DNA of 64,000 nt, taken from sequence record KP682386.1, one strand, 5' to 3'. A program made the position numbers. Origin of the DNA: Escherichia phage PA36. This document shows, in pieces, positions 60,001 through 64,000 of the stretch; the first letter of the stretch is position 1; each line of letters starts with the position of its first letter.

Positions 60001-63000
60001 AGCGCACCGGATAAGATTCGGTGTTTTGTTGAAAAATACTGTGATAACAAACAGAAAACCCGTCAGTAAGACGGGCTTAGCAAGCTGGGACGGTTACTTT
60101 AATAATTTCAGTGCCTTTACATCCACTTCAACACTGCTCAGGTCTTTATCAATTTCACCCTCAATTCTTACTTTGTCTTTCGGAGAAACATTCTGACCGG
60201 CCCATATGCTGTCATCGATATCCGTGACAATTGTCCCGCTATTGTCACGAAACTCATAACGTTCATCACCCACTTTTTTAACGATGCTCCCTTCAAGGAT
60301 AACCCATGCATCATCCTTCAGTTCTTTTGCCTGCGCTACTGTTGAACGCTCTGCTTCAGGCCCTTGGAAACCGCCCTGCTGTGCAAAAGCGCCAAAAGAC
60401 ACACCAGAAATAAGTGCTGCAATCAATACCTTTTTCATTCATAGTCCTCTTTCAGAGATGAACATTCAAACAGCATTTTCAGTATGGTAAAGCGCGGGTG
60501 CGTTGAGGATGCCTGACACATCAGAGGTGGCGGGAGATTACTCCCCCGCTTGGTCTCTTACTTCTCAGATTCGTAGTCTACGAAGACAGCGACCTCCGTC
60601 TGACCGGTTCGGATTCGCACCTCGCAGAGGTCTTTCCTCGTTACCAGTGCCGTCACTATGACGGTTAAACAGATGACGATCAGGGCGATTAACATCGCCT
60701 TTTGCTGCTTCATAGCCTGCTTCTCCTTGCCTTTCGGCACGTAAGAGGCTAACCTACATGTGTTCAGCATGGATTGAGCCTCAGATTAATGTTAAGCGTC
60801 TTGCCGGACGCGTAATGTTAACTGGGGCTTTTCTCTATCTGCCGTTGGTGTTCATGCCCGAGGCAGATAGCCTCAAGCACCCGCAGCAATTCTACTTAAC
60901 TCTCCTTTTCCCGCAAACCGTTTTTATCTCCAGCGACAAATCGAATACACAACCAGCACCACCGCCATTACTGTTCCTACATTTGCGAATGCTTCAGGCC
61001 AGGTCATTGATTCACCTTCTGCTCAATATTTTTAAGGTCATTTTCCGCATACAGTATTGCAGTTCTTGCTGCCCGCAACCGTGCTTTGGTGTTCTTTTCT
61101 TCACGCTCGAGGCTGGCAACAGATTCTCGGAGCTGATCGTGTCTGTTATGAAGCTGTCTAATCTCTCTCACCACAGCCTCACCATCGTTCGCACACCGCA
61201 GAACATACTGAAAAGGGTCCACAACACATCCGCACTGCAAGCACAGGATAACGTGATCCTGTTCATGAACCTCAATGGCCCGATGCTTACAGCTCTGTTG
61301 TGTGTAGTTTTTTCTGCCAGTTACTGTAATGTTCAGCAGCTTCTCTTCATCGCGCTTTGGCTGCACCAGTGTGATGATATTATCGCCTTCATTTTCCATC
61401 AGTTCACCTCCTGCGGCGGTTCTGGTAGCGGCATCCAGTGTGACGGTTTCCACGACGCACCAGGAATTATCCACCCATCATTAGCGTCAGGATGCCCCGG
61501 GATGTAAGTCGCCCACTTCATTCGCCAGTCACCTTTCCTGTCAAACTCCACGGCAACAAGAACGGCTGTTTTGGTATCCGGCATTCGCTCACTACAACTT
61601 ATCCAACCATCCGGAGTTACCGGAGAGTTGCCAGACAGCGCATTCTGCAACCGTTCCAGCTTAACGTATTCCTGAACCCTGTTTCCGTCGCACGCCTGAA
61701 GCCATTGCTCAGCCTTTTGCGCATCAGTGTGAAAGGCACAAGTGCGACCGTCATCAAATTGCATTTCGTAGAGGTTAGCAATCTGTTCAAACTGCGTGTG
61801 TGGCAACTTGTAAGTTTGGCTTACGAGTTCGGCTTCCAGTTCTGCTATGCGCTTCTCTGATGCTTCAAGTAACGCCTGCTTATCGCGTAGCGCTTCTTCC
61901 AGTTCAGCAACATGGCATTCACTATCAATAAGGTTGTTCTCTGCTGCTCCCAGCTCAACTCTCAGCTTCCCAACCGTAAGCGCAATCTCCTCGTTCTCCT
62001 GGTCGCGGCGTTTGATGTATTGCTGGTTTCTTTCCCGTTCATCCAGCAGTTCCAGCACGGTAGCCGGGTTAGCCTCTGCTATGAATTCAGCGTTGCATAA
62101 GCCTGAGCATCTGTTTCAACCAGGCAGTTAACATGACATTCTGCAATCACGCCACCGGGTTCTCCTTTCCATTTTTGGCAAACAAAAACTCCTGTTAAAT
62201 TGCCGTGCTGGTTAACAGATGTATGCCCTACGATGTAGCTTCCTTTAGTTGCTTTCTCTGCCTTTTCACGCAGTGCCTGATAGTCAATCTTGCTCATTTT
62301 TCTCTTCACTCCGGTATACAAGGATTACTACGCCCCCTCTGCTAATTGCGCGAGCTGGATCCCCTGGTTCCATGCCGTCAATACCGAAGGCTTCGAAAAA
62401 TGCATCTATTGCCTTTTGGCGTTGCTCCTGCTTACGGCGTTTATTCCATTTTTTCATGAACAACAGTGACAGCCATCGTCCGCTGCAGAACATGATGTAG
62501 AAATAACCAAGGAGCGCTAGGCCGGTGTTCAGGGCTGTATCGATCGTTATCGTGGTGTTGATGTTCACTTCACACCTCTCTGTTTGTTGATAAGTTCAAT
62601 ATCCTGCTGGCAACTGGCGCAAGCTCTGCATCCACGAACAGCCAGGCGTCGCCGCTCATCTATCGGATCGCCACACTCGCAACAATGAGTAGCAGATGGG
62701 GCATTACTATCGGATTTGTATTTTTGCAGGGAGAGATTGCGCTGCAATTCTTCGATTTCAGCGGCGTTGTCGATGATATCTGCCATTTTCCTTTCCTTCA
62801 GGCATGAAAAAAGGAGCCGAAGCTCCTTTGGTTTTAGAATTCGAATTGCCTTGCCCGCAGGCTTTTCAGCATTGGTCTGGCCCGCTGAACTACGAAACTC
62901 GACTGGTCAAGCCGTGCCGCCTCTCTCAGTAGCACATCTCTGTTCTTCGTCACCATGTAGATGGTCTCAAACGCAATGTCATACAGCTTGTTCGTGTATG

Positions 63001-64000
63001 AGGAGTTCAGCTCTTTCATGATCGGATACAGGTGTTTGCTGAGGTCCTGGGCTTTTTCCATCCAGAGTTGCATGTAGCAGAGGAGGATGATTTCCTCGTC
63101 TGTGAATTGTTGCTGTGGTTCTGCTTGTGCCGACTGCATGTTGCGAAGTTTCTTTTCGCACTCGATGAAGTATCTGCGTATCTGTCGGCCTTTTTCGTTA
63201 CGCTCTACCATCGCCGTTTCTTTGGCTGTATCGAGGGTAAGGTGGTAGTCTTTTTTCCCTCGCCCATAACCTATTTCCCGTTTCTGGGAAATAGCTATAT
63301 AGTCCTGATTTTCAACGAATCCGTACTCTTCAATACGTTCTGTAATCCACGATGCAAAGCGTTTACCTACTCCAAGAAAAGTATGTAAATCACGGGCATT
63401 AACGAGAAGAGTGGTTTCGTTGGCGATAGTGCCGTTGAATACGGGGATGAGTTGACTGGTCATGATGACCTCCTTATTTGTTTAGTTTATAACCGCCAGT
63501 TAGTAGCTGGCGGTCGGGTGTCAACTGAGCCAAATAAGAAGCTCTGGGCATATTCCCCTTGCGGGTGTTGTATTACGCCTCTCCACCCGACCTTTGTACG
63601 GATGTAACTATGCCAAATTGCAGGCATAAAAAAGCCGCAAAGCTATCGGGTGCGGAGACCGCTTATTTGTTCAGTGCGGTCAGTATGCGATAGCTCTGGA
63701 GGATTTGTCAATCAGCGGAATATTGATGAACGGGTAACGGTAAATGCCTCATCCAGAAAATTAACGCAAATTCGCATCGCAAACTTGCGTTAATTATCTG
63801 AAATATCAAGTTAAATCCCCTTAAATGTTTGGGGCACTATTGGGGCAAAATGTGGTTGTTTGGGGCATATTTGGGGCAAAAAAGAACGTATAAAGAACGG
63901 TGTAAAATTGATTTCTTCATGGTCAAAATGAGGTGTAACAGATTGAAAAATATATGCTCTTGGACGATCTTCGGTAATTCTGTGTTTTTAATGCTTCATG

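Follow-up and report, generated by a model that had tools for sequence, protein, structure and literature searches.

The right end of the Escherichia phage PA36 prophage: very probably a native att-proximal accessory arm comparable to the lambda b region

In phage lambda, transcription from pL passes through att and covers the genes ea47, ea31, and ea59. The right end of Stx2a phages of the Sp5/VT2-Sakai type, with which we are concerned here, is itself no new discovery: it has been annotated since 1999 and partly characterised, and its repeats have been on record since 2003. Sp5 lacking ORF86-90 (ECs1246-1250, i.e. ECs1246 through the second TraR gene, TraR2) is viable and forms several-fold more plaques, and neither ORF91 (ant) nor ORF84-85 (hok) was among the nine genes found to be essential by deletion (PMC5155283). 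The hokW-sokW locus of the same prophage is a working type I toxin-antitoxin system, of which both toxicity and antitoxin activity have been demonstrated. HokW emerges after mitomycin C treatment in a RecA-dependent way while the sokW RNA vanishes, deletion of hokW-sokW leaves the phage viable and halves phage release, and the authors left open which step of induction triggers HokW (PMC8621323). Here we analysed this region in Escherichia phage PA36 (sequence record KP682386.1), in a window of 64,000 nt whose positions are those of the prophage map. An earlier inspection of the sequence (the original prediction) had read the minus-strand genes at 60558-63463 either as the decayed early region of a second prophage or as an arm built by intra-phage duplication, and had supposed a junction near 60 kb. 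We hold with high confidence that 60.1-64.0 kb is the native att-proximal accessory arm of Sp5/933W-type Stx2a phages, the counterpart of the lambda b region, and not a second prophage.

Location of the arm in the prophage and in the phage circle

The segment 59500-64000 is identical (100%, full length) to many Stx2a phage records, including those of the PA-series, VT2-Sakai/Sp5, and Stx2 phage II, and at least 80% of it is present in 42 phage records (megablast). The window corresponds to KP682380 (PA27) from base 22 to the end. In E. coli O157:H7 Sakai, the prophage Sp5 feature starts inside wrbA on the left and stops exactly at window base 64000 on the right, where host DNA follows with rutG as the first annotated gene; both wrbA and rutG are outside the prophage. 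Because the Sakai feature ends at this base with wrbA and rutG as flanks, the window is a single complete Sp5/VT2-Sakai-type Stx2a prophage, cut 21 nt inside the left att site.

In the circle of Stx2 phage II (AP005154), a large tail-associated gene and a small open reading frame (ORF), both on the plus strand, are followed by the minus-strand arm in the order ygiW, gef/hok, c34, Ea22-like, c36, c37, and AntB-like, and then by the 7-nt attachment site, int, and xis. Farther beyond xis come an Ea22-like gene, orf61/63/60a, exo, bet, gam, kil, and cIII. The junction of ant, 537 nt, GTTTCAA, and int is repeated in one IMG contig and in a circular record of 63,329 bp that stems from an O157:H7 assembly, and Mondal et al. 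detected the attP circle by polymerase chain reaction after mitomycin C treatment (PMC5155283). The excised circle has the arm 565 nt downstream of int and, like the pL operon, on the leftward strand; it is because integration opens the circle at attP that the arm appears at the far end of the prophage. The arm is thus placed between the late/tail genes and attP and is co-oriented with int, as expected of a b-region-type location. It is the position between tail genes and attP, the orientation as int and pL, and the dispensability that make the arm a b-region analogue. In the E. coli strain 111 chromosome (CP028685) an ant-attP-int junction is found between tandem prophage copies, with phage genes on both sides, and therefore the genuine tandem junction of this phage falls at the end of the window and not at 60 kb. 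Strain 112 and PNUSAE145590 likewise contain an internal ant-attP-int junction, as tandem lysogens predict.

These data decide on the explanation that a second lambdoid prophage, devoid of int, is represented at 60.5-63.5 kb by its decayed early-left region and is joined to the first at an att-like site near 60 kb. Its attraction is that the genes are of early-left type (TraR, Ea22, DUF551) and co-oriented with the left arm, that an 11-mer at 60029 resembles sequences near both prophage ends, and that tandem lysogens of this phage exist. However, the block is contiguous with attP-int in the circular phage records, which run from the arm through attP to int without any att-like site at 60 kb, and it is the native right end in both 933W and VT2-Sakai. 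Contiguity of this kind is what the original prediction itself had named as its refutation. Host wrbA/rutG DNA is met only past base 64000, and the real tandem junction is ant-attP-int. The 11-mer TTGAAAAATAC, which had been taken for a third partial att core at 60030-60040, is in fact at 60029-60039 and is not the core. Allowing at most one mismatch it has 3 matches in the window compared to 1.38 expected, a number reached in 17 of 100 shuffles and thus at chance level. The true core is GTTTCAA, the 7 nt common to attL (...ccatcGTTTCAAcATGTCtaagg...) and attR (...tcatgGTTTCAAtATGTCcgtac...) of Sakai and identical to the annotated attachment site in AP005154; it sits just beyond window base 64000. 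Searching the window with this core and with an extended core pattern, we found no core-like site near 60 kb, and the extended pattern gave only two matches with three mismatches, at 18 kb and 41 kb, as chance predicts. The 60-kb site is a spacer between the converging rightward late operon and the leftward arm, each with its own terminator-like hairpin, and the 11-mer is inside this spacer. A tandem or hybrid prophage is thus extremely improbable: the observation behind the original prediction was largely right, and its reading as a second prophage with a 60-kb junction is wrong.

The near-copies that had been seen at both prophage ends are real. They consist of TTGAAAAATATA at 13-24 and 63943-63954, within the att arms; this 12-nt direct repeat flanks the core and is the sequence that was first mistaken for it. 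In addition, TTGGGGCA is present five times in the att arms, four times in tandem within 50 bp (63829-63878) and a fifth time on the opposite arm (50-57). Both repeats are probably candidate sites for the recombinase or for accessory proteins of the Int/Xis/IHF type. The long hairpin at 63748-63800 would be met by the leftward (int) transcript about 200-250 nt past the att core, and by analogy to this placement in lambda we infer a role like that of tI/sib.

The two traR-ea22 cassettes and a deletion remnant

Self-comparison revealed four co-linear direct repeats between the right and the left arm. One joins 61840-62299 to 4397-4857 (461 bp, 95.2% identity, one gap) and another joins 62565-62697 to 4852-4984 (133 bp, 82.7%), both far above chance; two DUF551 fragments, 39 nt and 58 nt long, have their match in the left gene 2389-3012 and not in 4082-4855. 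The near-identity to 4082-4855 claimed before is therefore correct for the 461 bp and does not extend to the DUF551 end. The paralogous extent is only about 0.65 kb of the roughly 3.9-kb arm (or of the 2.9-kb region considered originally). Left-arm counterparts of ant, its RNA leader, DUF4752, ECs1246, hok/sok, and ygiW were not found in the window by self-comparison, and so the statement that the right arm duplicates early-left genes holds for this fraction only.

The GenBank annotation of AP005154 contains these repeats as "arrangement cfe, region II" on the right and "cde, region IV" on the left; the right side of Stx2 phage I is "cde", and 933W matches there. In the right arm of 933W an intact Ea22-DUF551 protein of 299 aa is encoded, whose gene abuts TraR without an intervening DUF4752, and the left and right copies form a single uninterrupted 588-bp repeat of 97.6% identity. 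The right TraR of 933W is chimeric, the N-terminal half resembling the right copy of the window and the C-terminal half the left copy, and the right ea22 has a left-type (L-type) 5' end and is right-type (R-type) from about column 340 of the alignment of single nucleotide polymorphisms (SNPs). The repeat boundaries are within genes, which argues for homologous exchange or gene conversion of mosaic cassettes and not for a decaying second genome. Judged from this pattern, it is recombination or gene conversion that maintains the similarity of the two traR-ea22 copies.

The N-terminal ea22 allele of the right copy is 96-99% identical to alleles of other prophages compared to about 91% (protein) to its own left copy. 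In phi24B, a right-type Ea22-DUF551 gene is the only copy and is located in the exo-xis region. A prophage at a tRNA-Arg gene of E. coli 90-3040 contains ant (with an allelic Xcc1-type RNA), DUF4752, DUF551, ea22, and traR between exo and xis-int. Based on these two arrangements the arm genes belong to one early-left accessory pool. As far as gene order tells, attP-int-xis of 933W/Sp5-type phages is placed in the middle of this pool, and the position of int within the pool varies between phages. Early-type genes at the apparently wrong prophage end are expected if att is inside an early-left accessory region, and do not call for a second prophage.

Concerning the origin of the second cassette, two explanations have to be considered. 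The whole right arm could be a duplicate of the phage's own exo-xis region that decayed later. This would account for the direct repeats, including the 588-bp repeat of 933W, and for the same traR-ea22 order in both copies. It is nevertheless improbable given the small paralogous part, the many arm genes without a left copy, the mid-gene boundaries as a signature of homologous exchange, and the finding of another prophage in which the pL side of int holds DUF4752, DUF551, and ea22 as well as ant and its RNA, with phi24B having a single right-type copy. Of the earlier proposal of an accessory arm built by duplication, the accessory arm stands, and duplication applies only to the traR-ea22 cassette of about 0.6 kb, with exchange between the copies. 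The cassette could also have been imported from another lambdoid phage by homologous recombination and then partly homogenised with the left copy by gene conversion, to which we give about an even chance. Supporting an import are the closeness of the right N-terminal allele to those of other contigs, the identity of only 71% between the right TraR and the left copy (4852-5073), and the left/right mosaics of TraR and ea22 in 933W. However, the N-terminal ea22 segment is short and highly conserved and bears little phylogenetic signal, and the same picture would result if the cassette had been duplicated within the genome and had then exchanged with other phages.

Drawn as a circle, the phage has the two cassettes on either side of attP-int-xis at a distance of about 6.6 kb; the distance of about 57 kb given originally is that of the prophage map only. 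In the chromosome the same direct repeats flank the rest of the phage, and crossing-over between them would delete about 57 kb of prophage. Such a product was looked for with a synthetic left-by-right recombinant as query against 5,426 complete E. coli genomes. The best one-piece matches of the synthetic junction were found in strains OkiPb01680 and OkiPb01700 (AP042506, the record of OkiPb01680, and AP042594), which contain a 6,117-bp element between wrbA and ymdF-rutG comprising int, xis, a few small genes, ea22, DUF4752, TraR2, and Ant. In attL and attR the element agrees with Sakai in every letter, and its first 2.1 kb are 99.9% identical to window positions 1-2114. The ea22 gene of this element has all R-type SNPs and the 1-nt deletion from the 5' end to alignment column 413, and from column 443 onwards all L-type SNPs, beyond which comes the C-terminal domain of the left type. 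Read from these SNPs, the crossover took place within the last ~30 bp of the repeat (about 4418-4448/61861-61891 of the window) and removed about 57 kb. The suggestion that the Ea22 repeats are substrates for deletion thus has a natural example, which is reported here as new. By recombination between the repeats a toxin-converting prophage can be reduced to an stx-negative remnant of 6 kb, as two sequenced genomes show. The 6.1-kb remnant retains int, xis, ant with the leader RNA, and both att sites and may, in principle, still be an excisable mini-element. The reciprocal product, a phage without attP-int-xis, was not found at 80% coverage or more among 50,697 phage records; phi24B resembles it and is better read as a single-copy arrangement.

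The leader RNA of ant

On the strand of ant and a little past the region considered originally, positions 63504-63592 match the Rfam family sRNA-Xcc1 (RF02221) with 69.1 bits compared to a gathering score of 53. The match lies 41 nt ahead of ant and behind a TTGACA-18-CATACT site, from which, given the consensus match, the RNA-ant unit could be transcribed without pL. A divergent C4 or isrK RNA was considered as an alternative, and in 63440-63720 Rfam gave only RF02221 and no match to these families even at E<=10. We did not see a LexA box upstream of ant by eye, a systematic search not having been made. According to published notes, sRNA-Xcc1 precedes an ORF6N gene in APSE phages, and in Xanthomonas integrons it precedes symE.

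The loop of hairpin 2, CUUCUUAUUUG (63541-63531), is complementary over 11 nt to CAAAUAAGGAG (63480-63470), which contains the Shine-Dalgarno sequence of ant. To compare this arrangement with other loci, 120 viral contigs with a conserved hairpin-1 core were gathered. In 74 diverse cases the next ORF is nearly always of antirepressor type (KilA-N 18, Bro-N 13, AntA 11, Rha 10, ORF6N 8, P22_AR_N 7), and 62 of 73 guarded proteins are less than 25% identical to the Ant described here. Covariation was tested with the defined loop against the region -30 to -4 and with permuted partners, replacing a noisy version based on minimum-free-energy loops and a 140-nt target. In 75 non-redundant loci the longest helix between loop and upstream region has a mean length of 6.51 nt, compared to 4.65 +- 0.10 nt in 1000 permutations (maximum 4.97), and the target of the loop is at -19 to -7. 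The permutation ignores relatedness, and dozens of different loop/target pairs are involved. In three E. coli ant alleles, moreover, whose RNAs are nearly the same otherwise, loop and target change in concert (AUUUG/CAAAU, GUAAG/CUUAC, and UGAAG/CUUCA).

At a little short of even chances, we tentatively propose that the sRNA-Xcc1-class RNA is a cis-encoded antisense "immunity" RNA, resembling P1 c4 and belonging to another RNA family, whose hairpin-2 loop masks the downstream Shine-Dalgarno sequence. RF02221 would then be a widespread leader class guarding potent regulators or toxins, and not a trans-acting virulence sRNA, and the allele-specific loop/target pairs would be its specificity determinants. 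If the pairing of the RNA with the ant message is true, the function of this Rfam family has to be reassigned. A statement on the mechanism of sRNA-Xcc1 and ant was not found in the literature searched and may be known to RNA specialists; the covariation between loop and ribosome-binding region, which suggests RNA control of ant, is new here. Separate from this locus, a genuine c4-a1b1/isrK/C4 set with scores above the Rfam gathering scores is present at 17144-17342 (+), ahead of two Rha/ANT-type ORFs (17395-18129 and 18198-18926). Together with the ant leader, the phage thus has two separate RNA-guarded antirepressor-like loci.

Gene content, proposed expression and comparison with known systems

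The arm consists of three units. The first is ant with its own promoter-like site and the leader RNA. The second comprises TraR2, DUF4752, the Ea22-DUF551 gene inactivated by a 1-nt deletion, and ECs1246, about 0.6 kb of it being paralogous to orf73-ea22 of the exo-xis region. HokW/sokW and the YgiW-like OB-fold protein form the third unit, with a terminator facing the late operon at its end. Within the lysogen, activity would be limited to units that have promoters of their own. After excision, the N-antiterminated pL transcript would continue through int, attP, and ant to hok and ygiW and would run head-on into sokW, causing interference. Expression of the modulators in the arm would thus be coupled to circularisation and excision. 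The RecA-dependent induction of HokW is consistent with pL transcription of the arm after excision, and the geometry offers a testable answer to the question which induction step triggers HokW, namely the circularisation that joins the arm to pL. Read-through across attP, by comparison with lambda, and the interference with sokW are what we infer.

Several points weigh against the arm being a b-region counterpart with this expression and history. The read-through from pL into the arm is drawn from the lambda analogy, and the number of sigma-70-like sites in the region is not above that of shuffled sequences. The cassette may have originated by internal duplication or as an imported exo-xis cassette, the right N-terminal allele being nearer to other prophages and phi24B having a single copy. 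An exact Sp5-derived recombinant was not found at 80% coverage or more among the 5,426 E. coli genomes, and the right part of the Oki remnant is only 93.7% identical to the window, so that the parent of the remnant was a close relative and not exactly the PA36 phage.

The TraR/DksA, Ea22-like/DUF551, antirepressor-like, and hok genes listed in the original prediction are all present on the minus strand where it had placed them, with clear Pfam and Rfam support (Table 1). The hok locus has a Hok/Gef peptide (Pfam HOK_GEF 1e-22), an overlapping mok frame, and the hok mRNA leader with the Sok target (Rfam RF01794, 113.5 bits compared to a gathering score of 59). All three of mokW, hokW, and sokW are annotated in 933W, and by homology sokW is placed on the plus strand at about 60762-60832. 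A Pfam search with ECs1246 gave no significant match. The frameshift in ea22 that had been noticed before is confirmed: one A is lost at about 62093-62095, where the right copy reads GC-AAC and the left copy GCAAAC, and this is the sole gap in the alignment. The Ead_Ea22 domain is therefore homologous and not continuous in one frame, with profile positions 1-56 in the ORF 62079-62321, and the right-copy ea22 is a probable pseudogene in this lineage. In IMG/VR the right-type ea22 is intact in 44 contigs and frameshifted in 5, and the intact copies mostly have the ordinary position within bet-exo-orf61-traR-ea22-...-xis-int. The right TraR belongs to a family of about 73 aa and has the CxxC...CxxC motif. 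Binding to RNA polymerase and a reprogramming of host transcription are known from TraR homologues, lambda Orf73 among them (PMC9239242), and by this family property the right TraR may act alike. Based on its domain make-up Ant is antirepressor-like, of the AntA/P22 type, and may inactivate a repressor.

Table 1. Features of the 60-64 kb arm, its flanks, and the left repeat counterpart
Feature	Position	Strand	Evidence and remarks
Left (exo-xis region) repeat counterpart	4397..4984	-	5' 460 nt of ea22 (4082-4855) and 3' 133 nt of orf73/traR (4852-5073)
Last small ORF of the rightward late operon (orf72/VT2-Sap74, 62 aa)	59826..60024	+	Terminator-like hairpin at 60004-60024
Intrinsic-terminator-like hairpin and U-run, closing the leftward arm past ygiW	60056..60078	-	Fold -15.7 kcal/mol, z -3.0
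YgiW/YdeI-type bacterial OB-fold (BOF) protein, signal-peptide-like N-terminus (ECs1244)	60094..60438	-	Pfam BOF 5e-33; annotated in VT2-Sakai and 933W
hokW/mokW/sokW type I toxin-antitoxin	60558..60882	-	hokW 60558-60713; mokW 60558-60770; hok leader/sok region 60708-60882
ECs1246, 131 aa, Cys-rich and coiled coil	61004..61399	-	Start overlaps the stop of the upstream gene (ATGA)
3' portion of split Ea22-like gene (ECs1247), C-terminal DUF551	61399..62058	-	Ead_Ea22 profile positions 69-139
5' portion of split Ea22-like gene (ECs1248)	62079..62297	-	Premature stop from loss of one A
DUF4752 gene (ECs1249)	62284..62568	-	Pfam 1.7e-39; segment "f" of GenBank "arrangement cfe"; without left copy; missing from 933W right arm
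Second TraR/DksA-type (lambda Orf73-like) zinc-finger protein (ECs1250)	62565..62786	-	Pfam zf-dskA_traR 1.5e-07, above cut-off
Antirepressor-like protein Ant (ECs1251)	62834..63463	-	Pfam AntA 3.7e-27 (N-terminal) and P22_AR_C 6e-09
ant leader	63470..63592	-	sRNA-Xcc1-class RNA 63592->63504; next hairpin 63513-63493; ant Shine-Dalgarno region; fold z -3.9
Sigma-70-like promoter TTGACA-18-CATACT	63682..63711	-	10/12 consensus matches
Long near-perfect hairpin (17 bp) followed by UUUUCU	63748..63800	-	-26.1 kcal/mol, z -7.3, 0/200 shuffles
P arm of attP/attR	63829..64000	+	GenBank "arrangement g" and "attachment site" features; TTGGGGCA and TTGAAAAATATA repeats

Outside the arm, the window contains an inverted pair of 1311-nt copies that are 100% complementary (24329-25639 and 48840-50150, 23.2 kb between them). 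Both have a match to the ALIL pseudoknot, which identifies them as IS3-family (IS629-like) elements, and they could bring about an inversion of the intervening segment. With a length about 1.3 kb above that of the 62,708-bp Sp5, the window has one extra IS3-family copy. A 77-nt unit rich in GGN-CCN triplets occurs in six diverged copies at 39759-40432 (+) and looks like a collagen-like Gly-X-Y repeat within a late (tail-fibre-type) gene. Known phage RNAs are found within 22248-22507 (STnc100 adjoining the anti-sRNA AsxR), 7877-7935 (the lambda cIII thermoregulator element), and 20591-20842 (tRNAs Met-CAT, Arg-TCG, and Arg-TCT).

Compared to its closest relatives, the arm is 100% identical to the right end of VT2-Sakai/Sp5 (orf73-80; ECs1244-1251). 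With the right end of 933W (ST933Wp74-80) it shares the order ygiW, hok/sok, hypothetical gene, Ea22-like, TraR-like, Ant, and attR core, and it differs by having DUF4752 inserted (so that "cde" is replaced by "cfe"), by a 3' half of traR that has diverged further, and by the 1-nt deletion splitting ea22. The ant leader resembles the immI regions of P1/P7 (c4-icd-ant) and P22 (sar-ant) in having a structured co-oriented RNA just upstream of an antirepressor-type gene. It shares with these regions the complementarity of part of the RNA to the translation-initiation region, and with P1/P7 the joint change of allelic RNA and target, as in their heteroimmunity. In contrast to P1/P7 it matches RF02221 and not RF01695 (C4) and has no icd-like upstream ORF, so that the resemblance is a functional one with predicted regulation. 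With respect to the exo-xis region of lambda and phi24B (orf60a, orf63, orf61, orf73, ea22), TraR2 is a homologue of Orf73 and the split gene belongs to the Ead/Ea22 family; about 0.6 kb of the arm is 83-95% identical to the resident exo-xis copy, and the exo-xis ea22 of phi24B has the same DUF551 C-terminus. The arm cassette differs in its location on the other side of attP-int-xis, the frameshifted ea22, and the additional DUF4752 and ECs1246. The lambda b region (ea47, ea31, ea59, sib/tI) extends from the tail-fibre genes to attP. The arm has no sequence homology to ea47, ea31, and ea59 and contains instead a toxin-antitoxin system, an antirepressor, and exo-xis paralogues; its transcription from pL, for which the geometry speaks (same strand, 565 nt from int), and any retroregulation are putative. 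Like the b region, however, the arm is leftward as int, is split from int on integration, is dispensable (PMC5155283), and has a strong hairpin just past att at the spot of lambda tI/sib.

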